A stretch of DNA of 57,753 bases from Candidatus Uhrbacteria bacterium (GTDB taxonomy: Bacteria; Patescibacteriota; Patescibacteriia; UBA9934; CAZDDW01), in NCBI GenBank assembly GCA_043811105.1, contig JBDRNK010000015.1, positions 1-57,753 on the forward strand, given 5' to 3'. The translations under genes and the position numbers were made by a program. The notes beneath the pieces are model-generated. The model was not told the DNA's origin. It worked only from the letters and a program-made list of their open reading frames with translations, and did not search any database. Shown here in pieces: positions 9,715-55,520 of this stretch (the stretch's first letter is position 1; every line of letters begins with the position of its first letter).

Positions 9715-11010
9715 ATGTCAAAGAAACATATTATCCAGAATTATCAAAAACTTGCCACAACTAAGTTGCGCAAGGATGCTTTGAATATTGTTGAAGCTGG
9801 ATTACAAGCGATCAACACTAAACAGGTTGTTAATCAAGCAGTCAAGCTCAAAGGTTCAATTCTTAAGGTTCAAGGCCAGCGATATGATTTAAAGAAATTT
9901 AATCGTGTTTTTATTATCGGCGTAGGAAAGGCCTCATATGATGCCACCAAAGAACTTGAACGCATACTTGGATCCAAAATCACTGGCGGAATTGTGATTG
10001 ACCTCAAACCTGGAAAATTAAAGCGGCTTGAGTATGTTCAAGGAACCCATCCTTTGCCATCTGCTAAAAACATTCAGGCCACAAAGAAGATAATCGAGCT
10101 TTTAAATTTTTGCACTTCTCTTGATCTAATTATCACTATTGTTTCTGGTGGCGGATCAGCTTTACTGGCGCAACCTGTTCATTTGAACAGCAATCATTTA
10201 ATCAAGATTAATGATTATTTACTTCGGTCAGGTGCTTCTATCCATGAGATCAATACTGTGCGCAAGCATTTTTCTTTGATTAAGGGCGGACAGTTTGCAC
10301 GCTTTGCTCATCCAGCCACTTTGGTCGGACTTATTTTTTCAGATGTGCCAGGCGATGATTTAAGTGTGATTGCTTCTGGTCCGACAGTTATGGATAAGAC
10401 AACAGTACTTGATGCACAACGGATAATAAAGAAGTACAAGATATTTGATAAGTGCAAGGTTCCATATTCTGAACTCATTGAAACTCCAAAAGAAAAAAAA
10501 TATTTTAAGCGGGTGCAAAACTATTTGCTGGTTAATAATCAGGTTGCCACAGAAGCGATGCAACGAAAAGCTAAAGAGCTGGGGTATCGTGTATGTTTAT
10601 TATCAAATGAACTTGAAGGCGAGGCTTCAAAAGTGGGGGCTGATCTGGCTAAGCAGGCTAAACCCGGTCAAGCTTTAATTGCAGCTGGCGAGACCACGGT
10701 AACAGTTCGTGGAAAAGGCAAGGGAGGTCGGAATCAAGAGTTGATTCTAGGCTCGATCGCAAAATTGCCACCAGATACTCTAGTTTGTTCAGTCGCAAGC
10801 GATGGGATCGACAACACACCAGTGGCCGGAGCTTTTATTGATGAACAAGTTTTAGAATCAATTAAAACACGCAAGTTGGATCCAAAAACGGCGCTGAAAA
10901 CCAATGATTCATATCCGTTTTTTCAGAAATTAGAGTGTCAAATCAAGACTGGAAAAACTGGAGCGAACGTGTCGGATTTGATGTTGGTGTTGCGGGATCG
11001 ACAAGCGTAA
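9715..11010 (+). CDS. glycerate 2-kinase / hydroxypyruvate reductase family (DUF4147 + MOFRL)
   Basis: Motifs 'GVGKASYDA', 'HPLPS', 'VSGGGSALL' and 'AGETTVTVRGKGKGGRNQEL'. I moved the start to ATG 9715, 7 nt after TATAAT (9702-9707); the 9580 extension runs through the inverted repeat. Confidence 0.8.
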   Translation: MSKKHIIQNYQKLATTKLRKDALNIVEAGLQAINTKQVVNQAVKLKGSILKVQGQRYDLKKFNRVFIIGVGKASYDATKELERILGSKITGGIVIDLKPGKLKRLEYVQGTHPLPSAKNIQATKKIIELLNFCTSLDLIITIVSGGGSALLAQPVHLNSNHLIKINDYLLRSGASIHEINTVRKHFSLIKGGQFARFAHPATLVGLIFSDVPGDDLSVIASGPTVMDKTTVLDAQRIIKKYKIFDKCKVPYSELIETPKEKKYFKRVQNYLLVNNQVATEAMQRKAKELGYRVCLLSNELEGEASKVGADLAKQAKPGQALIAAGETTVTVRGKGKGGRNQELILGSIAKLPPDTLVCSVASDGIDNTPVAGAFIDEQVLESIKTRKLDPKTALKTNDSYPFFQKLECQIKTGKTGANVSDLMLVLRDRQA

Positions 11011-11017
11011 GCTTGTC
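10994..11017 (+). repeat. REP copy (variant stem) overlapping the glycerate kinase stop codon
   Basis: GGGATCGACAAGCGTAAGCTTGTC. The TAA in the GTAAG loop (11008-11010) is the gene's stop codon. Confidence 0.75.
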
Positions 11018-11154
11018 ATTTAAATACACCTGTTGATAGCTTACTAGCCAATAAGCTTAAAATAAGCTAGACTATACTTGTGATAAGCTTGGCTTGTGGA
11101 TAACCAGGCTTAAGCACCCTTAAATACATAATAAATCACTTAAATAAGATAAAT

Positions 11155-12241: not shown

Positions 12242-12270
12242 TCTACAGATTCTAGAAAATAAGCTATAAT
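12242..12270 (+). promoter_or_regulatory. promoter of leader copy 1
   Basis: TATAAT (12265-12270) with a weak -35 TCTACA at N17. A second candidate, TTGACA (12206-12211)-N16-TAATAT, lies further upstream. Confidence 0.5.
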
Positions 12271-12279
12271 ATACACGAT

Positions 12280-12312
12280 ATGCCCGGTAGTACAACTTTG
12301 AATATTAAGTAG
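12280..12312 (+). CDS. leaderless mini-ORF MPGSTTLNIK (copy 1)
   Basis: The ATG lies 9 nt after the -10 box. The peptide and nucleotides are conserved with the 17943 copy (MPGRKTLNFR...). Confidence 0.35.
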   Translation: MPGSTTLNIK

Positions 12313-12418
12313 CCGGGTGTAAATAAACAGGGTTGCTAAAAACCAACAAAGGCTTTTATTCTTAGCATCTATTATTAAGACAACTTGAGTCCAAAAATTC
12401 AAAGTTGTACTACCGGGT
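12280..12418 (+). promoter_or_regulatory. structured 5' leader, copy 1 (candidate cis-regulatory RNA)
   Basis: 12283-12302 is the perfect reverse complement of 12398-12417. The helix ends 1 nt before the main ATG 12419. A homologous copy lies at 17943-18079. Confidence 0.55.
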
Positions 12419-13987
12419 ATGAGCAAACAGCTCGAAAAACTTATTTCAGCTATTGCTGAAGGACACACAGACCCAACCCCGCCTAAAGGCGAGGTTATTT
12501 CAGTTGATGAAACCGTTTCCAAAGCCGCATCGATTTATGAATCTGTGCGCAACACCCTTGAGTATGACGAAGTACATCGCTTACGCAGTAATGCGATCCG
12601 TCGCATTCTTAAGCGTCATCTTGATGGTGAAGAAGATATGTATGAGGTGGCTCGAGATTTGCTTCATGAATTGATCTGGGCCGGGTATTTGCCAAACAAT
12701 CAGATCGCCACTTCTGTAATCAATGAGTTAGCCGATGTTTTGGGTAAATACAGAAAACTGTTTCAAGTAGCCGGAAAACAAAAAGCTGATCCTGAGGAAA
12801 TGTCAGCTTGGTTACTGGACCTGTTATCAACTGAGGTTGAATATTTGATCAATCCTCCGCTTGAAGCAGAGGGGCTGGCAACTTATGCCTATACCGTAGC
12901 CAAATCTAAGATTGAGTGGAAATCCAGCTTGATAAGAAAAGAGGATCGCGAGATGCAACTGTTTTTGGCTATATACCGAACGTTGCTTCGTTCAAATATT
13001 GCGAGTTTGCGATATCGGGTATTTTTGCTGTTTTATCCTGAATGGCCAAAAGCTAGTCAGGCTTTGATTGAAGATATTGCTGGTAATCTGAGCAAGGTTC
13101 ATGATCATGTAGAAACCCAAGTTAATCATCCGGCCGCTGATTCCCTTAATCGTTTAGTTCGTCGTTATGTGATCATGTTTAATGTTTTGCATGACGTTAT
13201 TGTTAAGGATCCGGAACAAGCAATTGATACCCTAAGTACTGAGGCAGGTCTGAAAAAGGCAGTTAATCAAGCAGCAGCAACTCGATATAAAGATTTTTAT
13301 TCCAGAACCCGGCGCGGAATTATTCGAGCAGTAATTTTCTTGTTTTTTACTAAAATGTTGCTGGCTCTAGTTATCGAGCTACCTTATGATGTGGTTGTGC
13401 TTCAGACTACAAATTATATCCCTTTAATTACCAATATTATCTTTTTCCCAATCTTGCTGGGAATAATTGGAATGACCGTGTCTATTCCACAAAAAAAGAA
13501 CACGGAAATGATTTTTTCAACTTTAAAGGCTGTGCTTTATGGAGAAGGGGATATGTCGCTGGTTTATCGAACCAAACGTCCTTGGCGTTCAACTGCTGGA
13601 CGGATTTTTGATATCTTGTACCTGCTGATGTTTATTGTCTCCTATGGGTTGATTGCCTATGCTTTATATAAGGTTGATTTTAACACTTTGTCGATTTTCA
13701 TTTTCTTGTTCTTCTTGTCCTTGGTTATGTTCTTTGGGGTGCGAATTCGTATGACCAAACGTGATTTGTTGATTGTTAAGGGTCGTGGAGGAATTGGTGC
13801 TGCTTTATTCGATTTTTACTTTTTACCGATTATTCGGGCTGGACGCTGGATGGCTTTACGAGCACCGCGGATTAATGTCTTTTTGTTCTTCTTAGATTAT
13901 ATTGTTGAAGCACCGTTTAAAATGGCAATTGCTTTAATTGAGGGTTGGTTAGCGTTTATTCGGGAAAAGAAAGAGGAGATTGAGTAA
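12419..13987 (+). CDS. hypothetical protein: soluble N-terminal half plus polytopic membrane C-terminal half
   Basis: 522 aa with several hydrophobic helices after about residue 300. I did not recognise a family motif. Confidence 0.7.
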   Translation: MSKQLEKLISAIAEGHTDPTPPKGEVISVDETVSKAASIYESVRNTLEYDEVHRLRSNAIRRILKRHLDGEEDMYEVARDLLHELIWAGYLPNNQIATSVINELADVLGKYRKLFQVAGKQKADPEEMSAWLLDLLSTEVEYLINPPLEAEGLATYAYTVAKSKIEWKSSLIRKEDREMQLFLAIYRTLLRSNIASLRYRVFLLFYPEWPKASQALIEDIAGNLSKVHDHVETQVNHPAADSLNRLVRRYVIMFNVLHDVIVKDPEQAIDTLSTEAGLKKAVNQAAATRYKDFYSRTRRGIIRAVIFLFFTKMLLALVIELPYDVVVLQTTNYIPLITNIIFFPILLGIIGMTVSIPQKKNTEMIFSTLKAVLYGEGDMSLVYRTKRPWRSTAGRIFDILYLLMFIVSYGLIAYALYKVDFNTLSIFIFLFFLSLVMFFGVRIRMTKRDLLIVKGRGGIGAALFDFYFLPIIRAGRWMALRAPRINVFLFFLDYIVEAPFKMAIALIEGWLAFIREKKEEIE

Positions 13988-17123: not shown

Positions 17124-17379
17124 ATGTTACACAATTGAATTTTGTGATATGGATCGCGGTAAAGTGTGTTTTCGAAATAATGAGATGGACCTAACTGATG
17201 TTGAACCGGCTATTGGGCAAATTATGGAGCAGATTTGGAATCAGGTTACTTTGGTTGGAGTGACAAATTTGGCGAACGAAACATATCAACAACCAGTTAG
17301 AATTCCCAAAGAATATTGGGTAGTGACTTTTATTGATGAACTATCTCGTCGTTTTATTGATCTTAAACCGGTGTCATGA
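17107..17379 (+). CDS. small hypothetical protein
   Basis: 90-aa ORF that overlaps the upstream stop and the downstream start, so it appears to be operonic. Confidence 0.45.
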   Translation: MNMQPECYTIEFCDMDRGKVCFRNNEMDLTDVEPAIGQIMEQIWNQVTLVGVTNLANETYQQPVRIPKEYWVVTFIDELSRRFIDLKPVS

Positions 17380-17921
17380 TTGATTTGTTGATTTTAATAT
17401 TATTGTGTTTTTTTCTACTGGCATGTCTGTTTGCCTTATTTTTTGGTTTATCGGTTATTTATTCTTGTATTGGCGGTGTACCTTGGGTTCGAACCAAGCC
17501 AAAGATTTCTCAAGTCATGCTAGAAATGGCCGATGTTCAGCCCGGTCAAACCGTTCTTGATCTAGGGTGTGGCGAAGGTTCAATCTTGTTTGTGGCTGCT
17601 AAAAAGTTTAAAGCAAAAGGGATTGGATTTGATAATAATCTGGCCTTGGTTTTAATTGGGCGCTGGCGTGCATGCTTTGCCGGTCTTAGTGATCAGGTTC
17701 AGATTTATCATGGCAATGTATTAAAGAAACAATTACCAAAAGCCGATATTATCACTTGTTATTTGCTCCCGGAATTTCAAGTCAGACTTGAGTCGCACCT
17801 ACTCAAAACCATGCCTTCAGGCACAAAAATCGTCTGTCATGCCTTTAAATATCCTAATCTAAAATTACTCAAAACCAGTCAAGTTGATAAGACAAACCTA
17901 TATTTGTACCAAGTGCCATAA
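17376..17921 (+). CDS. class I SAM-dependent methyltransferase with an N-terminal TM helix
   Basis: Motif I 'VLDLGCGEGSI'. Confidence 0.7.
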   Translation: MIDLLILILLCFFLLACLFALFFGLSVIYSCIGGVPWVRTKPKISQVMLEMADVQPGQTVLDLGCGEGSILFVAAKKFKAKGIGFDNNLALVLIGRWRACFAGLSDQVQIYHGNVLKKQLPKADIITCYLLPEFQVRLESHLLKTMPSGTKIVCHAFKYPNLKLLKTSQVDKTNLYLYQVP

Positions 17922-17932
17922 TGTGTTATTAT
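17904..17932 (+). promoter_or_regulatory. promoter of leader copy 2
   Basis: TTGTAC (17904-17909), N17, TATTAT (17927-17932). ATG 17943 lies 10 nt downstream. Confidence 0.5.
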
Positions 17933-17942
17933 TGCCCCTGCT

Positions 17943-17993
17943 ATGCCCGGTAGGAAAACTTTGAATTTTAGGAAGCCGGATGCAGTTACCTAA
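17943..17993 (+). CDS. leaderless mini-ORF MPGRKTLNFRKPDAVT (copy 2)
   Basis: Same position and the same first 8-10 codons as the mini-ORF at 12280. Confidence 0.35.
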   Translation: MPGRKTLNFRKPDAVT

Positions 17994-18079
17994 TGTTGCT
18001 AAGAAAGAAAACCGTTTTTGGTTTTTAGTAACAGGCCTAATTCAATAACCACCTAAGGTTCAAAGTTTTACTACCGGGT
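17943..18079 (+). promoter_or_regulatory. structured 5' leader, copy 2
   Basis: 17946-17965 (CCCGGTAGGAAAACTTTGAA) pairs with 18059-18078 (TTCAAAGTTTTACTACCGGG) with one mismatch. The helix ends 1 nt before ATG 18080. Confidence 0.55.
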
Positions 18080-18661
18080 ATGAGCAAGGAAATTGTCTTT
18101 GATATTGAGACCCAGAATACCTTTGCCGATGTTGGTGGGTATAACACTAAAGCGCTTAAAATTTCAGTGATAGGCGTTTATTTTTATGAGACGGATACCT
18201 ATGAGGCCTTTGCCGTTGATGAGCTAAATAAACTTTGGCCTCGCCTTGAACAGACTGATCGCTTAATCGGTTTTAATAGCAAGCACTTTGATATTCCAGT
18301 AATGAATAACTATTATCCAGGAGACCTGTCGGTTCTGCCGCATCTGGATATTATGGAAGAAGTGGTTAATACTTTAGGACATCGCCTGAAGCTTGAATCA
18401 ATTGCCCAGGCCACACTTGGTTATGGTAAGAGTGGATCAGGTTTAATGGCGGTTGAATATTGGAAGCAAGGGCAGATGGATGAGTTAAAAGACTATTGTT
18501 TACAAGATGTTAAAGTGACCAAAGAGGTTTATGAGTATGGATTAAAGCACGGGGCTTTGGCTTACCCGGACTTTGGTGGAGAACGAAAGGGAATTAAGGT
18601 AGATTTCCGTCAGCAGTCGATAAAAAATCCAGCCTCGATTAATTTAACAATGCCATTCTAG
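18080..18661 (+). CDS. DnaQ-like DEDD 3'-5' exonuclease
   Basis: Exo I 'VFDIETQ', Exo II 'GFNSKHFDIPVM', Exo III 'YCLQDVKVT'. Confidence 0.7.
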   Translation: MSKEIVFDIETQNTFADVGGYNTKALKISVIGVYFYETDTYEAFAVDELNKLWPRLEQTDRLIGFNSKHFDIPVMNNYYPGDLSVLPHLDIMEEVVNTLGHRLKLESIAQATLGYGKSGSGLMAVEYWKQGQMDELKDYCLQDVKVTKEVYEYGLKHGALAYPDFGGERKGIKVDFRQQSIKNPASINLTMPF

Positions 18662-25575: not shown

Positions 25576-25579
25576 ATGT

Positions 25580-25603
25580 GACAAGCTTACGCTTGTCGAT
25601 CCC
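25580..25603 (-). repeat. REP copy (inverted orientation, AAGC/GCTT stem)
   Basis: GACAAGCTTACGCTTGTCGATCCC. Confidence 0.75.
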
Positions 25604-25636
25604 GTCTGGAACAAACTAAAGTTTGTTGATTCCATT

Positions 25637-31871: not shown

Positions 31872-31997
31872 GGGAAAGACGCCCGTAAGGGCGTCAAGGT
31901 TGTGATCTACATTTAAGAAAGCTAATATGACGCCCTGACGGGCGTCTGTCCCACAAAGAAGATTGCTCTCGTGGGGAAAGACGCCCGTAAGGGCGTC
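31872..31997. repeat. REP cluster upstream of the RAYT gene
   Basis: GGGAAAGACGCCCGTAAGGGCGTC / GACGCCCTGACGGGCGTCTGTCCC / GGGGAAAGACGCCCGTAAGGGCGTC. Confidence 0.85.
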
Positions 31998-32003
31998 AAA
32001 GCT

Positions 32004-32543
32004 ATGGCAGTTCCAAGTATCCATCGCCCTTGTCATGATTCAATGAATGTTCCTGGTGAGTATTTTATAACCGGAAAGACAGTAGACGGACAAAAATTCA
32101 TTCAGGCCGGCGAAAGAAAATATGAGTTTCTTGATGTCGTAATCAATTTGTGTGAGCGGCATGCCTTTGAACTGATTGCTTGGATGGTTGCTGATAATCA
32201 TTATCATATTAAAATTTATTCAGATCAAGTATTCAAAATTGGTCGCTTTGCAAACAGTTTACACAGCATCACGGCGAAGATATTTAATGATTTAGATCAG
32301 AAGCCTGGCCGAAAAGTTTGGAACCAATACTGGGATCGTCGAATTCGAGATGAGAAAGAATCCTGGACGGTCTTTAATTATATTCACTGGAATCCAATAA
32401 AGCACAGATACGCAAAGGATTTGTTAGAAGCAACAAAATACAGATACTGTAGTTTAGGAATTTGGCATGAATTGTTGGGTGAAGAGTTGATTGAGGTTTT
32501 TTATGAACAGTATCCGATTGACCAATTCAAACCATTTAAGTAA
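32004..32543 (+). CDS. REP-associated tyrosine transposase (RAYT; IS200/IS605-like Y1 HUH)
   Basis: HUH motif 'DNHYHIKI' and C-terminal 'WNQYWDRRIRDEKESWTVFNYIHWNPIKHRYA' (catalytic Tyr region). I moved the start to ATG 32004 because 31973-31997 is a REP. Confidence 0.8.
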   Translation: MAVPSIHRPCHDSMNVPGEYFITGKTVDGQKFIQAGERKYEFLDVVINLCERHAFELIAWMVADNHYHIKIYSDQVFKIGRFANSLHSITAKIFNDLDQKPGRKVWNQYWDRRIRDEKESWTVFNYIHWNPIKHRYAKDLLEATKYRYCSLGIWHELLGEELIEVFYEQYPIDQFKPFK

Positions 32544-32547
32544 CACT

Positions 32548-32605
32548 GACGCCCTTACGGGCGTCTATCCCCCGAATTAATGGGAGAGACGCCCGTAAGG
32601 GCGTC
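32548..32605. repeat. REP doublet downstream of the RAYT gene
   Basis: GACGCCCTTACGGGCGTCTATCCC and GGGAGAGACGCCCGTAAGGGCGTC. Confidence 0.85.
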
Positions 32606-32616
32606 ATCGTCAGAAT

Positions 32617-36749: not shown

Positions 36750-36803
36750 GGGATCGACAAGCGTAAGCTTGTCAATGTTGACAGGCTGACGCCTGTCGGT
36801 CCC
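36750..36803. repeat. REP doublet
   Basis: GGGATCGACAAGCGTAAGCTTGTC (36750-36773) and GACAGGCTGACGCCTGTCGGTCCC (about 36779-36803). Confidence 0.8.
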
Positions 36804-36815
36804 ACCCAGGCTAAT

Positions 36816-38678
36816 TTATTTAATTCGATCCAAAATTCCTACTGTCAATCCATTCGGAGCAAAATTAATGTCAAAATTCATTAACTGACCATTAATCTTA
36901 AGATAAAGTTCTTGACTAATTTGTTCTTTTAATAGTCGATTTAAAGGAGTGATGATCTTTCCTTGCAGTTCATTTCGATATTCAGTGTATCCAGACTTAG
37001 GTAAATCTTTGTTACTCACTGTTTTGCCCAGGTTCTGCATTAAACATTCTAAGATTTCAATCGTGGCTTTTTGTGATGGAATTTCTTTAGAAGAAAATTC
37101 TTGTCCACGAATAGAAATCTTGCCGTTAACTTTATCTAAGAACAGATCAAAACCGTTTCGATTCATTTCATTGTTTTGCACAATTGTACTTCGGCATCGT
37201 CCAAGTGCGTCACAAGAAATCAGCTGTTTATCATTTTGGTCAATAAAGGTTGAGTATCTTCCTTGAGAAATAAATTGATCAACTTTAATTCCTTGAGAAC
37301 CCCAACCATCACGCCAGGAAGCAAATTCAATTTTAACTTTTGGGTCATGGACACTTTGGATTTCTTTAACAACTTCATGAATCTGATCGCGGAATCGACC
37401 GCGCTGTGAAAATACAAAAACTGTCCCATCCTCTTTTCCCCAATACATGGCACGTAATCCAATCTTAACTCCTTGTTCATGAGCTTTTTGTCGAACCTTA
37501 CTGAAAATAAAGCGCAAGTTACGAGAAGGGGTTTCTTCAAAAGGACCGTTTGAAGAAAGTGTGGTTTCCAGGATTTCTAAAAAGTTGGTGATTTCCGAAC
37601 TTTTTAGTCGATACATATAAGCTCTAATTAAACTGGCTAAAAGAAAAACTCGACTGATTGATTGGCCTTGGGCAAACTGAACCCAATAACGCCCACTCCG
37701 TTCGATCTTTTTCAAAAAGTTTGGTAAGTGATCCTGTTCTTCGCTAATTATTTCAGCAAAAATTTGTTTAACGTTTTCTTGTAGTTCATCAAAACCCGGG
37801 ATAACCACATTCTTTACATATTCTGATGGAGCACCGTAATTTTTCGTTGTTCCAGGATTTATTCCAACAACATCAAAAGGGAACTCTCCGTTGATATCAG
37901 CCAGCTCGTTTAAGCGATAGCACCAGGCTCGCATGTGATTAAGCTCGTCAACATTACTAGAGACATCAAGCGGTGGTAGGCCAGGAAAAGGATGCTCAAT
38001 TGATCCGGCTCGTTCTTCTGTAAAATGAACTATAGGAAAGCTTGAATTCAAAGTTGAGGTATATGATGTTGATCCAGAACTAACACCACAAAATGTCAGA
38101 GCAACAAATTTAATAATATTGCCTTGAATTTCTTTGTACAACAAAGAAATCGGGTCAGTGCCATAGTTAATCTGATGGCCTGTTAAATAAGGTACTTGTT
38201 CAATTTCGTTAATGGTTGCAAATTTATAATAGGCATAAACAGCAAACATTATTGCATTGCTGATGCCTGGATCCAGGCCTGTGTCAGCTGGTTTTTCCGC
38301 TAGAACGTTAATGGTAATTCCTTGAATTTCATTTTGCCCGGTTTTATTTTTTACTATTTTTTCTAAGAGAGGCAGACATTTGGCCCAATCATAAGGATCA
38401 TATTCAAGTGGAATAAAACGTTGTTTGTGTGGCGAATAACCCAAAAGATGATTGATTTGAATTTTACCAACCTGGTTTGGTTGAATTCCAATATAGGTTC
38501 GGAACGGAAGTTTTTGTCTAATCGTTGGTGCTCCAGAACGCCAAGCAATTCCAGTTGGTAGGGCAAAGGAGGTATCGCAAGAAACAACCAAGTCATTTTC
38601 AGCAAAAAAACGCTCGTAGATTTCTTTGTGTCTATCTTGAAGTGCCTCAGTATTTTCTTTTTGTTCAAAAGGCAGCAT
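36816..38678 (-). CDS. GHMP-kinase-like N-terminal region fused to a C-terminal OmpR/PhoB-type winged helix (paralog 2)
   Basis: 620 aa. Degenerate GHMP motif II 'KPADTGLDPGISNAIMFAVYAYY' and motif III-like 'GVSSGSTSY'. C-terminus 'ISIRGQEFSSKEIPSQKATIEILECLMQNLGKTVSNKDL' resembles trans_reg_C. The functional call is tentative. Confidence 0.55.
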   Translation of the reverse strand: MLPFEQKENTEALQDRHKEIYERFFAENDLVVSCDTSFALPTGIAWRSGAPTIRQKLPFRTYIGIQPNQVGKIQINHLLGYSPHKQRFIPLEYDPYDWAKCLPLLEKIVKNKTGQNEIQGITINVLAEKPADTGLDPGISNAIMFAVYAYYKFATINEIEQVPYLTGHQINYGTDPISLLYKEIQGNIIKFVALTFCGVSSGSTSYTSTLNSSFPIVHFTEERAGSIEHPFPGLPPLDVSSNVDELNHMRAWCYRLNELADINGEFPFDVVGINPGTTKNYGAPSEYVKNVVIPGFDELQENVKQIFAEIISEEQDHLPNFLKKIERSGRYWVQFAQGQSISRVFLLASLIRAYMYRLKSSEITNFLEILETTLSSNGPFEETPSRNLRFIFSKVRQKAHEQGVKIGLRAMYWGKEDGTVFVFSQRGRFRDQIHEVVKEIQSVHDPKVKIEFASWRDGWGSQGIKVDQFISQGRYSTFIDQNDKQLISCDALGRCRSTIVQNNEMNRNGFDLFLDKVNGKISIRGQEFSSKEIPSQKATIEILECLMQNLGKTVSNKDLPKSGYTEYRNELQGKIITPLNRLLKEQISQELYLKINGQLMNFDINFAPNGLTVGILDRIK

Positions 38679-38679
38679 A

Positions 38680-40545
38680 TTATTTTATTCGATCTAAAAT
38701 TCCCACGGTTAATCCGTTTGTAGCAAAGTTAATTTCAAAATTCATCAGCTGGCCGTTTATTTTCAGATCAACTTCTCGACCTAATTGTTCGTGAAGTAAT
38801 TTATTTAAAGGCGAGAAGATCTTTCCTTGTAATTCGTTGCGGTACTCTGTATATCCAGACTTAGGTAAGTCTTTGTTGCTCACTGTTTTGCCCAGGTTCT
38901 GCATTAAGAATTCCAAGATTTCAATCGTGGCTTTTTGTGACGGAATTTCTTTAGAACTAAACTCTTGCCCACGAACAGAAATCTTGCCATTTATTTTATC
39001 CAAGAACAGATCAAACTGATTGCGTTGAACTTCTGTGTCTTTGACCACAGTGTGAGAACATTCACCTTTTTCATTACATAATGTTAGTTGTTTTGAATTC
39101 TGTTCAATAAAATCCGAATAAATTCCTTGGGAAATAAACTGGTTAACTTCTAAGCCTTTATCAGCCCAGCCGTCACGCCAAGAGGCAAATTCAATATGAA
39201 TGTTTGGGTTGTACTCTTTTTGTATACTTTCAATCACTTCCATGATCTGATCACGAAATTTACCTTGCTGTGAGAAAACCATGATACTAGCGTCTTCTTT
39301 ACCCCAAAACATTGAACGAAAACTTATTTTTATTCCTGACTCATGAGCTCGTTCTCTGATTTTTCGTGTAATATATCGTAAGTTGCGAGAAGGTGCCTCT
39401 TCAAACGGTCGGTTGATAGTCATTAAAGCATCCTGAGCTTCAAGGAAACTATATACATTTGAGCTGCGCATTTTGTATTGATATAGGTGGATCAATTCTT
39501 GAAGAACATATAACCGAGACATGGCTTGGCCACGAAGATAACGTTGCCAGTAATTACCAGGTCGATCTATATATTTCCAAAAACTTGGAATACGATTTTG
39601 ATCTGAAAAATCAAATTTTGAAAACAGTTCTTTGGTATCAATTTGTAATTTATTAAAATCTGGAACAAGCACTTCTTGAACATGGGTCATGGCCGCAGCG
39701 TACTGTCTTGATGATCCAGGATAGATACTGACCACATCGAGTGGGATTGGCTCATCGTTGATTTTGGCCATTTCAGTTAATCGAAAGCACCAATGTTTGA
39801 TTGACTCAGCTCGATCAAGATCGTCACTGATATCAAGTGGTGGTTTATTTTCGTATGGTTCAGCAACACTACCAGCGCGTTCTTCCATTACATAGACGAA
39901 CGGGCTTTTACCGTCAAGAGTTCCAGGATAGGTGTCTCCACCAGTTGCTACTCCATGAAAGGTTTGTGAGAGAAGTTTAAGGGCAACACTAATAACATCT
40001 TCAAAATATTTTGCTGCACTAATTTCTTTTGTTTGTAGATCAATACCGGTCAATTTTGATATCTTATTGGCAGTATCCAAATCAATAATTCCATAATAAA
40101 GAAAACAGACCAAAGCGATAGAAAACGCACTTGGTGCGTCAAATCCAGTATTTTCCGGTTTTTCATAAAGAAGATCTAATGTGATACCTGGAAAATCTTT
40201 TGTTTTTAAACGTTTGCTAATTTCTTGATGAAGAATTGGAATACTTTTCTCAAGATTGATCGGCTCATATTCAAGTGGAATAATTTGTTGATCTCGACTC
40301 GAGTAGTATCTAGTTTTTTCAATTTTTATTGTTCCATTCTCATTATTTTTCTTTACACCTGCATACATTCGAAAAGGTATCTTGTGTTTGACTGCTGGTG
40401 CACCGGCTCGCCAAGTAAGACCAGTTGTTATATTAAAATTCATTCCACCAGAAATAACCAAATCATGCTCAGCAAAAAAACGTTCATAGGTTTCGTGAAA
40501 CCTTTCTTGGAGCGCTTGGGTGTTTTCGATCTGATTTTTATCCAT
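38680..40545 (-). CDS. GHMP-kinase-like + winged-helix fusion (paralog 1)
   Basis: 621 aa, collinear with 36816-38678 and separated from it by 1 nt. The C-terminal ~60 aa are almost identical to the paralog. Confidence 0.55.
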   Translation of the reverse strand: MDKNQIENTQALQERFHETYERFFAEHDLVISGGMNFNITTGLTWRAGAPAVKHKIPFRMYAGVKKNNENGTIKIEKTRYYSSRDQQIIPLEYEPINLEKSIPILHQEISKRLKTKDFPGITLDLLYEKPENTGFDAPSAFSIALVCFLYYGIIDLDTANKISKLTGIDLQTKEISAAKYFEDVISVALKLLSQTFHGVATGGDTYPGTLDGKSPFVYVMEERAGSVAEPYENKPPLDISDDLDRAESIKHWCFRLTEMAKINDEPIPLDVVSIYPGSSRQYAAAMTHVQEVLVPDFNKLQIDTKELFSKFDFSDQNRIPSFWKYIDRPGNYWQRYLRGQAMSRLYVLQELIHLYQYKMRSSNVYSFLEAQDALMTINRPFEEAPSRNLRYITRKIRERAHESGIKISFRSMFWGKEDASIMVFSQQGKFRDQIMEVIESIQKEYNPNIHIEFASWRDGWADKGLEVNQFISQGIYSDFIEQNSKQLTLCNEKGECSHTVVKDTEVQRNQFDLFLDKINGKISVRGQEFSSKEIPSQKATIEILEFLMQNLGKTVSNKDLPKSGYTEYRNELQGKIFSPLNKLLHEQLGREVDLKINGQLMNFEINFATNGLTVGILDRIK

Positions 40546-45767: not shown

Positions 45768-47624
45768 ATGCCTAAACGACGAGACTGGAAAAAATCATCT
45801 CGAACAAGTTCTGATTTACACGACCCTTGGCGAGTCGGTCTTTTTCGGGTATCTGTTTGTCTGTTTGCTGGAATTATTATTCTTAGACTATTTATCTTAC
45901 AAGTAGTTGATCATGGATTTTATGAAGCCTTAGCTTCAGGCCAACACGAAATTTTTCAAGAATTATTTCCAGAGCGCGGGACAATTTATGCCCAGGATTT
46001 TATGACTGAAGAATTGGTGGCCATTGCTACAAACCAATTGCTCGGTTTTGTTTATGCTGATCCGCGTCGAGTTGAAGATCCATATAATACCGCAGCCGAG
46101 CTGGCTAATGTGTTGGGCTATGAGATAGAAGCTAAGATAGTTGAGCATGAGTTGATGATAGAGGGGGAATCCTCCTCCGCTGAAGCTTCGGAGGACAGGG
46201 AAGAGCAGGACAGTGAATTTCAGACCCTGTTAAATCGTTTATCAAAACAGGATGATCCTTACGAGCCGATCGCCCGCCAGGTCAGCGATTTGCAGTTGCA
46301 ACAGATCGATGTTCTTGATTTGTCTGGCATATATTATGTTCGTGAACAAGCTAGAATGTATCCGGAACAGGAGATCGGTGGACATCTGTTAGGATTTGTT
46401 GGTTCTGATGAAGCAGGGAATATGTCCGGACGATATGGTCTAGAAGGATATTTTGATCAGGTTTTGTCAGGAATAAATGGTTATTTGCAATCTGAGCGAG
46501 ATATTGCCGGTCGTTTAATCGCTGTTGGTGACCGATCGGTTGAACCGGCTGTTGATGGTGCTGATATTGTCCTGACCATTGATCGAACAATTCAATACAT
46601 GGCTTGCAGTCGTTTGCGCGACACGGTTTTTAAACACGGAGCTGACGGCGGTTCAGTGGTAATTCTTGATCCTAACGATGGTGCGGTCTTGGCCATGTGT
46701 TCTTATCCGGATTATGATCCAGCCACTTACAACGAAGTTGAAGATATTAACATCTACAACAACACAGCTATTTTTGGAGCCTATGAGCCTGGTTCGGTCT
46801 TTAAGCCAATTACCATGGCTGCGGCTTTGGACACCGGTTCGGTAACTCCGGGAACAACTTATGAAGATACCGGAGTGGCTGAGATTGCTGGCTATTCTAT
46901 TATGAACTCAGACGAAGAAGCTAACGGAATTCAAACCATGACTCAGGTTCTTGAAAAATCATTAAACACTGGAGTGATCTTTGCTATGTTGGAAACCGGA
47001 GCTGAGGTTTTTCGAGATTATATTGAGGATTTCGGATTTGGTGAGTTGACCGGAATCGAACTTGATAATGAAACCGCTGGTGATGTTTCCAGCCTTTATT
47101 TGGCTAGTGATATTTATCCGGCTACAGCTTCTTTTGGACAAGGAATTATGGTTACTCCTTTGCAAATGGTTAATGCCTTTGCCACGATTGCCAATGGTGG
47201 TACTTTATATAAACCGTATTTAGTTAAGGAAATTCGCTATCCTGACGGAACCGTTGAACAAACAAATCCGGAGCAAATCCGTCAGGTGATTACTGAAAAG
47301 ACTGCTCAATTTCTCTCAGCCATGCTGGTTTCAGTGGTTGAACGCGGACATGGTACGCAAGCCGGAGTTGATGGTTATTATGTTGCTGGAAAAACCGGTA
47401 CGGCACAAGTAGCCAAAAAAGACGGTTTAGGGTACGATCCAGATGTGACCATTGGTTCTTTTGCCGGGTTTGCCCCGGCAACCAATGCACGCTTTGCTAT
47501 GATTGTCCGTATTGATCGACCGCGAACCGTGCAATGGGCGGAATCAACCGCAGCACCGCTTTTTGGTGAACTAGCTGAGTTTTTACTTCAATATTTAGAA
47601 GTTCCTCCGGAAAGAGGAATATAA
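45768..47624 (+). CDS. ftsI: penicillin-binding protein 2 / FtsI-type transpeptidase
   Basis: SxxK 'GSVFKP', SxN 'KSLNTG' and 'KTGTA'. N-terminal TM anchor. Lies upstream of murF. Confidence 0.85.
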   Translation: MPKRRDWKKSSRTSSDLHDPWRVGLFRVSVCLFAGIIILRLFILQVVDHGFYEALASGQHEIFQELFPERGTIYAQDFMTEELVAIATNQLLGFVYADPRRVEDPYNTAAELANVLGYEIEAKIVEHELMIEGESSSAEASEDREEQDSEFQTLLNRLSKQDDPYEPIARQVSDLQLQQIDVLDLSGIYYVREQARMYPEQEIGGHLLGFVGSDEAGNMSGRYGLEGYFDQVLSGINGYLQSERDIAGRLIAVGDRSVEPAVDGADIVLTIDRTIQYMACSRLRDTVFKHGADGGSVVILDPNDGAVLAMCSYPDYDPATYNEVEDINIYNNTAIFGAYEPGSVFKPITMAAALDTGSVTPGTTYEDTGVAEIAGYSIMNSDEEANGIQTMTQVLEKSLNTGVIFAMLETGAEVFRDYIEDFGFGELTGIELDNETAGDVSSLYLASDIYPATASFGQGIMVTPLQMVNAFATIANGGTLYKPYLVKEIRYPDGTVEQTNPEQIRQVITEKTAQFLSAMLVSVVERGHGTQAGVDGYYVAGKTGTAQVAKKDGLGYDPDVTIGSFAGFAPATNARFAMIVRIDRPRTVQWAESTAAPLFGELAEFLLQYLEVPPERGI

Positions 47625-53373: not shown

Positions 53374-53616
53374 TTTCTCAACCGCCCCACCCATTCGGCC
53401 TTCGAAGCCGCACCTTGGGTAGAGGGCGGCTTTTTTATTTATAGACTAAAAACTAAAAATGGGGTCAGGTCTTGAGTTCGAACCTCAATAGACTAGATAG
53501 TACTGTGGTGCAGGTCTTTGGTTGACTAGTTGCCTCGATCGGACAATCGAACCCAGGGAGATTCTCATCCTCCCCGGGATCATAAAAACCGTCTAGAAAA
53601 ATCTAGCCGGTTTTTA

Positions 53617-53784
53617 TGGTGACCCCAGGGGGAATATAGTCGTGCCGACCATATTGAACTCCTCCGCTCGGAAGACGTTGAATGAATTCAGGTCTTCTCT
53701 CGCTCAGTCGTGCAATCGAACCCAGGGAGTTCTCATCCTCCCTAGGATCACAAAAACCGCCTGGAAGAATCCAGTCGGCTTTTG
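53617..53784. repeat. tRNA-3'-end-like repeat module, copy 1
   Basis: It starts TGGTGACCCCAGGGGGAAT. This is followed by a ~85-nt block almost identical to 55297-55383 (GTCGTGCCGACCATATTGAA...CGTTGAATGAATTCA..GTCTTCTCTCGCTCAGTCG..AATCGAAC). It ends in a bidirectional hairpin. Confidence 0.6.
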
Positions 53785-53993
53785 TGGTGACCTACTGTAT
53801 TGAGAATTGGAACACCATTATCCAACATCTCAAGCAATGGTCAGAAACCTTGCCGCATATTTTGGAAGAAAAAACTTTTGCAATAAATCAACTATAGCAA
53901 GCTCTTTTTGATGGAGATGATTTACAATTCTCTTCATTGGACATCTACTTGTTTTCCAAGGATATATCCCTATTTCTCCGTAACTATTCCAAT

Positions 53994-55277: not shown

Positions 55278-55445
55278 TGGTGACCTCACGGAGAATATGG
55301 TCGTGCCGACCATATTGAATTCCTTCGCTCGGGAGACGTTGAATGAATTCAAGTCTTCTCTCGCTCAGTCGAACAATCGAACTCGCCGAAGTGTCTCATC
55401 CCCATGGAAATCAAAAAGCCGCCGTCCATTTGGACGACGACTTTT
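55278..55445. repeat. tRNA-3'-end-like repeat module, copy 2
   Basis: The first 19 nt, TGGTGACCTCACGGAGAAT (55278-55296), are identical to the 3' end of the adjacent tRNA-Glu gene as read on the + strand. The conserved ~85-nt block follows. It ends in the hairpin GCCGCCGTCC..GGACGACG. Confidence 0.65.
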
Positions 55446-55520
55446 TGGTGACCTCACGGAGAATCGAACTCCGGTTCCAAGGATGAGAACCTTGTGTCCT
55501 AACCACTAGACGATGAGGCC
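55446..55520 (-). tRNA. tRNA-Glu (anticodon CUC), CCA encoded
   Basis: Minus strand: GGCCTCATCGTCTAGTGGTTAGGACACAAGGTTCTCATCCTTGGAACCGGAGTTCGATTCTCCGTGAGGTCACCA. I folded the cloverleaf by hand: 7-bp acceptor, anticodon loop TTCTCAT, T-loop TTCGATT. Confidence 0.9.

Follow-up and report, generated by a model that had tools for sequence, protein, structure and literature searches.

A probable young transposon insertion on the start codon of an exonuclease gene in Candidatus Uhrbacteria, and a site-selective family of such elements in CPR genomes

RESULTS

Two hairpin elements precede unrelated genes in the window

The DNA analysed here (the window) is a stretch of 57,753 nucleotides from a Candidatus Uhrbacteria bacterium of the Candidate Phyla Radiation (CPR; assembly GCA_043811105.1, contig JBDRNK010000015.1, positions 1 to 57,753). 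Two of its genes, one for a 522-aa membrane protein and one for a DEDD-type exonuclease, are each preceded by a short hairpin-forming sequence, here called copy 1 and copy 2, respectively. An earlier note on this DNA had read both as a leader with a mini-ORF (a small open reading frame) and a long helix ending just before the main ATG, and had proposed that this leader is a portable regulatory module. The two copies do stand before unrelated genes and the module is portable. Its portability, on the other hand, is not that of a regulatory module but that of a transposable element, as target-site duplications (TSDs) and empty sites indicate. [quoted passage not shown]

The landmarks described before in copy 2 (the TATTAT hexamer, the ATG with its mini-ORF, the two arms and the main ATG) are all where the earlier note had placed them (Table 1). 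The arms pair at 19 of 20 positions, the sole exception being a G/A mismatch (17954/18070), and the helix ends 1 nt before the ATG at 18080. The RNA of copy 2 has a predicted folding energy of −55.5 kcal/mol compared to a mean of −28.2 kcal/mol for shuffled sequences (z = −8.1; 0 of 200 shuffles were as good), and its minimum-free-energy fold contains the internal helix GUUGCUAAG/UUUAGUAAC, the TTGCTAA/TTAGTAA region noticed previously. Copy 1 RNA folds likewise; the two copies have the same arms and show 71% identity over their left 87 nt, which comprise arm and interior. Chance would give 0.39 occurrences of the word CCCGGTAG in the window; there are four, exactly in the four arms of copies 1 and 2. 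The helix of the earlier note is a pair of inverted repeats. A full sigma-70 scan found no −35/−10 pair at copy 2, only the −10-like TATTAT.

Both copies lie between duplicated target sites that are empty in close relatives

Both window copies share the same direct-repeat bounds, TATG|CCCGG...CCGGG|TATG. In each of them the right TATG holds the start codon of the gene and the left TATG supplies the ATG of the mini-ORF. Close relatives of the exonuclease protein were found in Uhrbacteria-type CPR bacteria, and one contig, L053, is syntenic with the window and codes for proteins that are 90-94% identical. Both copies are absent from it, with a single TATG at each site. At the copy-2 site, L053 reads ccataaTGTGATATTattgtcggacTATGagcaagg where the window has ...gcTATG(133 bp)TATGagcaagg; at the copy-1 site, it reads gcTATAATactcttgaTATGagcaaacag where the window has gcTATAATatacacgaTATG(135 bp)TATGagcaaacag. 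The empty copy-1 site retains TATAAT-actcttga-TATG, and the empty copy-2 site has TGTGATATT at the position matching TATTAT. An empty site with a single TATG was present in L043 too, and the exonuclease loci of four more distant orthologues (75-85% identity; L046, L047, L049, L051) were empty as well. A third case came from outside the window: an insertion at ftsZ in a Doudnabacteria contig (L033) is missing from a 95%-identical orthologue (L054), which reads TATTATtcccatacaaTATGccg with a single TATG. Thus three orthologous sites (the two window sites and the L033 ftsZ site) are known in the empty state with one TATG each, indicating that the element is mobile DNA with a 4-bp TSD. As the empty sites occur in close relatives, the insertions are young; the element is mobile on the time-scale of strain divergence.

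The empty sites also show which parts of the junction belong to the host. The shared start of the two downstream proteins (MSK), to which the earlier note had drawn attention, is present in both L053 empty sites, and the MSK/TATGAGCAA junction is therefore host sequence older than the insertions; all exonuclease orthologues start with TATGAGCAA. Before the insertion, ∼20 nt separated the stop codon of the upstream methyltransferase gene from the exonuclease ATG. The exonuclease gene retains an intact ATG at the right (18080), while a decoy ATG is left behind at 17943, and the mini-ORF of copy 2 is accidental, opened by this decoy. In the orthologue of the 522-aa protein (L053 2455-4062), the gene caller adds 13 codons upstream; the TATAAT box 9 nt upstream suggests that the shorter, leaderless MSK start is the real one.

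Table 1. Features of the two element copies and their surroundings in the window (TSD, target-site duplication)
Feature	Position	Strand	Remark
TATAAT box	12265..12270	+	9 nt before left ATG of copy 1; leaderless-type promoter TCTACA-17-TATAAT
Copy 1, left TSD TATG	12279..12282	+	
Copy 1, probable MITE body, 135 bp	12283..12417	+	arms CCCGGTAGTACAACTTTGAA/TTCAAAGTTGTACTACCGGG perfectly paired
Copy 1, right TSD TATG	12418..12421	+	ATG 12419 is the start of the 522-aa membrane protein gene
522-aa membrane protein gene	12419-13987	+	target of copy 1
Upstream methyltransferase gene	17376..17921	+	
−10-like hexamer TATTAT, preceded by TGTGT	17927..17932	+	host promoter-like sequence outside the element; 10 nt before left ATG
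Copy 2, left TSD TATG	17942..17945	+	ATG 17943-17945 is the mini-ORF start of the earlier note
Mini-ORF MPGRKTLNFRKPDAVT with stop codon (17991-17993)	17943..17993	+	duplicated ATG reading into the arm; not conserved in the family
Copy 2, probable MITE body, 133 bp	17946..18078	+	without an ORF of its own
Left terminal inverted repeat CCCGGTAGGAAAACTTTGAA	17946..17965	+	pairing extends to 17972 in copy 2
Internal hairpin GUUGCUAAG...UUUAGUAAC	17994..18033	+	of the copy-2 subfamily; common to copy 1
Right terminal inverted repeat TTCAAAGTTTTACTACCGGG	18059..18078	+	
Copy 2, right TSD TATG	18079..18082	+	ATG 18080-18082 is the true exonuclease start codon
193-aa RNase_H_2 / DEDD-type 3'-5' exonuclease gene	18080..18661	+	target of copy 2

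The element belongs to a dispersed family

A family search of the kind that the earlier note had called for yielded four further copies in a genome scan, located in Moranbacteria metagenome-assembled genomes (MAGs) and in one MAG labelled Bdellovibrionales, and 36 further loci in a metagenome scan. After duplicates and one chance match (L022) were dropped, ∼37 independent insertions remained, with bodies of 111-141 bp. The source records name Moranbacteria, Uhrbacteria and Doudnabacteria as hosts. Viral contigs, when scanned, yielded no copy and blastn gave no phage or plasmid match, and a phage or plasmid origin was rejected on these grounds. Flanks of TATG/TATG were found in ∼30 of the ∼37 insertions, and in the variant copies both sides were altered together: ATGA/ATGA (L012), TTGA/TTGA (L031), CATG/CATG (L025), TAA/TAA (L013) and ATG/ATG (L015, L023, L026). 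Since the two flanks vary together, they represent a duplicated target and not a fixed end of the element. The earlier note had itself named target-site duplications and copies inside genes as signs of a simple MITE. The former were found and speak against the leader reading; as for the latter, the copies sit on start codons and not inside genes.

The properties expected of a MITE are thus seen together. The element is small (133 and 135 bp in the window, against an upper bound of ∼300 bp for a MITE) and non-coding (with only accidental and variable mini-ORFs), it has terminal inverted repeats (20-bp arms, 94% of stem cells paired in 39 copies), its TSD is established by filled versus empty sites (three empty sites and co-varying flanks), and its copies are dispersed at unrelated loci (two in the window, ∼37 independent sites in all).

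Several members call for separate mention. On one contig, two copies lie 120 nt apart on the start codons of consecutive small operon genes (L029 11244-11376 and 11496-11625); the upstream copy of this pair has diverged, its two arms having changed in step (TGG/CCA, TTCG/CGAA), and a decayed third copy (1984-2113) stands before a membrane-protein gene. Contigs L002 and L028 are grouped with this case. A search for lone arms or an autonomous partner returned only decayed copies (L029, L002) and a lone arm at a contig edge (L034). The sole copy in a MAG with a non-CPR label (Bdellovibrionales; L001 5601-5733) lies in ∼1 kb without long ORFs, has the flanks TATA/CATA and could reflect mis-binning or a real insertion away from a start codon. 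Three contig pairs (window/L005, L021/L042 and L002/L028) are identical through the element and one side of it and 10-37% different on the other side, so that the elements may mark recombination or assembly breakpoints there. Unrelated hairpin families with the same ATG...ATG layout were absent from ∼350 kb.

The family inserts at start codons of leaderless-type genes

The right-hand ATG is the start of a real gene in ∼35 of 39 distinct copies (∼90% exactly on the start codon). The targets include rpsT, rplQ, rpsG, rplC, ftsZ, secF, dnaX-like and holB-like genes and an ABC ATPase gene, and the Pfam profiles of S20 and S7 align from residue 1-2 of the target proteins. For comparison, background counts were taken from crude gene calls on 235 kb of copy-bearing contigs: there were 134 TATG sites at start codons versus 180-329 other non-coding TATG/CATA sites. 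By these counts, start codons make up 29-43% of the harmless-looking TATG sites, compared to the ∼90% observed in the copies. The target genes also differ from other genes in their upstream sequence. Of 31 targets, 25 have a TANNNT hexamer whose end lies 5-12 nt upstream of the ATG, compared to 34 of 128 other genes starting with TATG (Fisher p = 4e-8); it is often TATAAT, with a modal spacing of 6 nt. A Shine-Dalgarno-like motif, in contrast, was found in 0 of 31 targets versus 49 of 243 other genes (p = 0.002). The family is therefore strikingly site-selective for start codons of genes with a −10-like box and without a Shine-Dalgarno sequence. By their upstream sequence, the targets look like leaderless-type genes, in which the insertion would lie at or next to the transcription start (+1).

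The few exceptions away from start codons also preserve function. In L013 it is the upstream gene's stop codon, 5 nt ahead of the next ATG, that has been duplicated, and in L031 the duplicated TTGA regenerates a −35 box. In L017 (5882-6019, − orientation) the element entered three codons before the stop and turned the host sequence TAT GCC AGA TAA into TAC GCC CGG TAG, and the protein keeps its C-terminus Y-A-R-stop through the element's own CCCGGTAG.

The preference for these sites could be due to the transposase, if it favours TATG in melted promoter DNA, to selection, or to the two together; likewise, the association with a −10 box may mean either that the transposase favours melted promoter DNA or that only leaderless contexts tolerate the insert. 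A simpler account would be that a TATG-preferring transposase together with the loss of harmful insertions explains the position at start codons, and that the hairpin has no role in expression; the element would then be a MITE of the ordinary sort, short-lived and slightly deleterious. None of the three insertions tested occurs in the nearest relatives, so that they are young, the other surviving sites keep function (the L017 C-terminus, the L013 stop codon and the L031 −35 box), and 53% of ordinary genes already begin with TATG, all of which would fit. Against it, start codons are a minority of non-coding TATG sites and yet carry nearly all copies, TATG alone does not explain the −10-box association and the missing Shine-Dalgarno motifs, and without translation, insertions in essential genes such as ftsZ, rpsG and rplC could not persist even for a short time. 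We consider this simpler account unlikely.

The arms are kept as a helix and the mini-ORF is not kept

The 20-bp arms are conserved (consensus CCCGGTAG-N5-CTTTGAN; arm pattern of the family, CCCGGTAGYRAAACTTTGA), whereas the interior is not conserved between genomes. Among 39 arm constructs, 94.2% of stem cells are standard pairs compared to 90.7% in shuffles, and eight stem pairs carry double changes; the observed values were reached by 0 of 500 shuffles, and slid registers were <50% paired. The innermost stem pair occurs in all four Watson-Crick forms (CG 14, UA 10, AU 8, GC 6), the outermost pair has changed from C-G to U-A in L030, and in the diverged copy L029b TAG/CTA has become TGG/CCA and TTTG/CAAA has become TTCG/CGAA. 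The arms stay complementary through double substitutions, which suggests that selection preserves their ability to form a hairpin. The compensatory change that the earlier note had drawn from the two window copies (ACAAC/GTTGT to AAAAC/GTTTT) is a real change from C-G to A-U, but it lies at the least constrained position of the stem, which is an A·C mismatch in 25 of 39 members; other positions are the ones that covary. The selection on the stem could act at the RNA level, where the hairpin would make the insert tolerable, or during transposition, at the level of single-stranded DNA.

Only the arm-encoded part of the mini-ORF (MPGSETL...) is conserved. The length of the mini-ORF varies from 3 to >45 codons with scattered stops, and the offset between the two ATGs occurs in all three frames (mod 3 = 0, 1 or 2). 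Three mini-ORFs have no stop through the whole element, of which two are in frame with the gene (L008, L032) and one runs out of frame across the main AUG. These observations therefore lend no support to a leader-peptide attenuator.

These data bear directly on the reading of the earlier note, in which the element is an evolved cis-regulatory leader, movable between genes, where a ribosome starting at the 5'-terminal AUG translates the mini-ORF and opens the helix that hides the main AUG. Some features suit such a leader well: the helix stops 1 nt short of the main start codon, whose A and U are paired in it, a −10-like box lies 9-10 nt before the first AUG, the stem covaries, and the canonical TATG frame has no in-frame stop in the arm, so that a ribosome from AUG1 would cross the whole 5' arm. 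However, the TSD and the sites empty in relatives that are 94-95% identical mark a recent insertion and not a conserved leader; the peptide is conserved only in its arm-encoded part; the targets (ribosomal proteins, ftsZ, an ABC transporter) are functionally unrelated, with no common regulatory logic apparent; and no Rfam family matches. We regard the evolved leader as quite improbable. In the Rfam search, at both the gathering and a permissive E-value threshold, no family was found at the element; the only matches were a tRNA-Glu elsewhere in the window and a chance miRNA-hairpin match (E = 0.076). A leader-peptide attenuator or known cis-regulatory RNA was rejected because the mini-ORF is unconserved beyond the arm and has no Rfam family, and a conserved regulatory leader because relatives at 75-95% protein identity lack the element in front of these genes.

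Most copies are polar relative to the gene, with a GC-rich tetraloop hairpin inside the 5' arm and an A/T-rich tract before the 3' arm, and 22 of 29 copies, by a count made by eye, share one orientation of the asymmetric arm variant TGAAA/TAGAA. With the TSD included, the sense strand folds better than the antisense strand by −4.8 kcal/mol (28 of 33 copies, p = 3e-6), a difference that comes mostly and automatically from U·G pairing of TATG with TATG. As to a possible outward promoter in the 3' part of the element, sense −10-like hexamers score better than antisense ones there (mean 4.45 versus 3.67 of 6, p = 0.007), but the region is simply AT-rich and their positions vary from 3 to 28 nt. 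A partial third arm motif, ACTTTGAN, occurs 11-18 nt before the 3' arm in a subfamily only (∼9 of 37 copies; interiors of L009, L010, L012, L016, L026, L032, L040 and L041). By pairing with the inner half of the 3' arm it can give a small alternative hairpin, and it could serve as a subterminal site for the transposase or as a competing structure in the RNA. The only diverged orthologous pair (L007/L024) has 0 of 40 changes in the arms, 5 of 84 in the interior and 19 of 300 in the coding sequence, numbers too few to test. Long-term retention of one insertion across species was not found, the insertions being young.

A single-strand hairpin element is a less fitting alternative

The hairpin also raises the question of the transposition mechanism. 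Instead of a cut-and-paste MITE moved by a DDE transposase, the element could be a single-strand hairpin element (REP/REPIN-RAYT or an IS200/IS605-derived PATE), inserted next to a specific tetranucleotide, TATG, by an HUH tyrosine transposase recognising the DNA hairpin in its folded form. The whole element is one long hairpin with co-evolving arms, the arms carry GTAG (GTGG in L029b), a motif conserved at the 5' end of REP sequences, the tetranucleotide target is strong, many copies have a GC-rich subterminal hairpin beside one arm, and no DDE transposase partner was found in ∼300 kb of family loci or among 20 window ORFs. HUH elements, however, insert without target duplication, whereas the flanking tetranucleotide is duplicated here and varies on both sides (ATGA, TTGA, CATG, TAA) as expected of staggered target cleavage. 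Moreover, the individual arms are not palindromic REP units and no RAYT or TnpA gene is present among the window ORFs tested. Such an element is, in our judgement, highly improbable.

How the second AUG may be reached

As CPR genomes are small and needed genes have been hit (ftsZ, rpsG, rplC, rplQ, rpsT, secF), the second AUG must still be translated; for ftsZ, no alternative start exists. To judge from the genes hit, the insertion must be compatible with the expression of essential targets. Three routes can be imagined. In the first, a ribosome starting at the 5'-terminal AUG1 would melt the 5' arm and free AUG2; this route is weakened by the fact that the mini-ORF stop is under no constraint. 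In the second, the hairpin would be cut at or near its base, regenerating a leaderless or near-leaderless mRNA. In the third, initiating or terminating ribosomes would be shunted across the base of the stem, where the two AUGs adjoin. Two further candidates did not hold. An N-terminal extension of the target protein was rejected, because the ATG offsets fall in all three frames and most mini-ORFs stop early, only L008 and L032 being open in frame; and re-initiation via a stop near AUG2 is unsupported, the stop positions being scattered.

A tentative model combines these points. The element may be a transposon adapted to start codons, with integration aimed at +1 of leaderless promoters (TATG in melted DNA) and with its own RNA hairpin neutralising the insertion, by clipping at the stem base or by ribosome shunting. 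If clipped, the mRNA would be leaderless again with the second AUG as its new 5' end; if shunted, initiating or re-initiating ribosomes would pass the stem from the decoy AUG to the real AUG. We hold this to be a genuine possibility, though we would not yet bet on it. If true, it would amount to an intron-like or intein-like strategy at translation initiation and would give a handle on CPR initiation without Shine-Dalgarno sequences. The hairpin may also, as a side-effect, influence the regulation of the downstream gene.

Other repeats in the window

Apart from the two copies, the window holds further repeats. A second repeat family (1602-1662, 2273-2297, 10994-11018, 25579-25606, 31872-32006, 32547-32614, 36750-36808) is made up of short hairpins rich in GC, with the pattern GGGA..GACGCCC-GTAA-GGGCGTC(A), which are found in either orientation and often clustered at gene ends; they look REP-like or terminator-like. 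Two adjacent paralogous genes on the minus strand (36816-38678 and 38680-40545) code for proteins of 620 and 621 aa and have stretches of 74-83% DNA identity; a Pfam scan, which covered the 620-aa protein only, gave no domain. A 35-nt inverted repeat (45622-45656/45721-45755; 89% complementary) with TACGAA-like units lies just upstream of an ORF at 45768 and could be an operator or a structured leader. Finally, a ∼170-nt unit is present three times (53534-53624, 53703-53792, 55278-55417), one of them beside a tRNA-Glu gene (55446-55520, − strand). On the minus strand this unit contains the T-arm-like GGGTTCGATTG, and ARAGORN and Rfam call the tRNA-Glu only.

DISCUSSION

We conclude that the element is an unusually site-specific form of a known kind of element and not an evolved regulatory leader, and we assign it with high confidence to the MITEs. 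Several points nevertheless weigh against this assignment or against the role proposed for the hairpin. No transposase flanked by the same repeats was present in ∼300 kb of family loci or among the 20 window ORFs tested. The TSD is 3 bp and not 4 bp in a few copies (L015, L023, L026, L013). The GTAG/GTGG of the arms and the covariation of the hairpin are also typical of REP/REPIN elements, which are moved by a different mechanism. The search patterns fixed most arm positions, so that conservation there reflects ascertainment and only the free positions are informative, and the background counts of TATG sites come from crude gene calls. Without the TSD, the sense fold is only 1.4 kcal/mol better than the antisense fold (p = 0.06), and the conservation of the stem could equally reflect the need for a DNA hairpin in transposition.

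The assignment has practical consequences. A leader architecture that recurs in CPR genomes is explained as mobile DNA and should not be annotated as a riboswitch or attenuator, and gene starts can be corrected, as gene callers extend or shift ORFs at element sites. It also raises the question of how a gene without a Shine-Dalgarno sequence is translated when a 20-bp stem and an insert of 130 nt separate its promoter from its AUG, and the answer bears on leaderless and other non-Shine-Dalgarno initiation in uncultivated bacteria. As a possible tool, the element could mark the transcription starts of leaderless genes in organisms without transcript maps.

We found nothing relevant in the literature on MITEs in connection with start codons, CPR bacteria, leaderless genes or the repeat word, and no bacterial MITE family is known to us whose copies lie almost only on start codons, still less on those of essential genes. 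Among the closest known elements are the Correia/NEMIS elements. They are ∼100-155 bp long and non-coding, with long terminal inverted repeats that form a hairpin when co-transcribed with a neighbouring gene and with a short TSD; they lie close to genes and can change their expression, and their hairpin is an RNase III substrate. The CPR element has in common with them its size, its lack of coding capacity, the hairpin-forming inverted repeats, the short TSD and the proximity to genes. In contrast, the Correia/NEMIS TSD is TA (2 bp) while that of the CPR element is TATG (4 bp), the repeats are unrelated, the Correia/NEMIS elements carry IHF sites and promoter boxes, the host is Neisseria and not a CPR bacterium, and the distance from genes is variable there, whereas the CPR element lies on the start codon. 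Identity with Correia/NEMIS was rejected because the 4-bp TSD and the ATGA and TTGA flanks exclude a duplication of TA only and because the repeat differs from the 26-bp Correia repeat.

Insertion sequences of the IS5, IS701 and IS1380 types have TSDs of 4 bp (or 4-5 bp) and short preferred target words, and IS5 has hot spots in easily melted promoter DNA. The TSD length is alike, and a preference for melted promoters would fit a target at the transcription start; however, no transposase with the CPR repeats was found in the loci and ORFs examined, and TATG and the repeat CCCGGTAG... are not known to belong to a described IS family. REPINs resemble the CPR element as non-coding hairpin repeats of ∼100 nt whose arms show compensatory changes and a GTAG-like motif. 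They differ in that they make no target duplication, lie mostly at gene 3' ends or in extragenic DNA and have a REP palindrome in each arm, whereas the CPR element has a variable TSD and non-palindromic arms. REPIN/REP-RAYT was rejected on account of the variable 3-4-bp duplication, the empty sites, the arms that are not self-complementary and the absence of a RAYT-like ORF among the window ORFs tested.

The MIRUs of mycobacteria are dispersed intergenic repeats that preserve translation of the flanking genes, with small ORFs that overlap the neighbouring stop and start codons. Their placement is similarly compatible with translation of the genes on either side, but they are direct-repeat minisatellites without inverted repeats or a hairpin, do not lie on leaderless starts and have no TSD evidence that we know of. 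For translation across a hairpin, parallels exist in the split ribosome-binding sites of T4 genes 38 and 25, the bypass in T4 gene 60 and the ribosome shunt of CaMV, where a stable mRNA hairpin is looped out and signals 5' of the hairpin are used 3' of it. In these systems no mobile DNA element makes the hairpin and the stems are much shorter than in the CPR element, so that they offer a possible analogy, and only an analogy, for how AUG2 might be reached across it.

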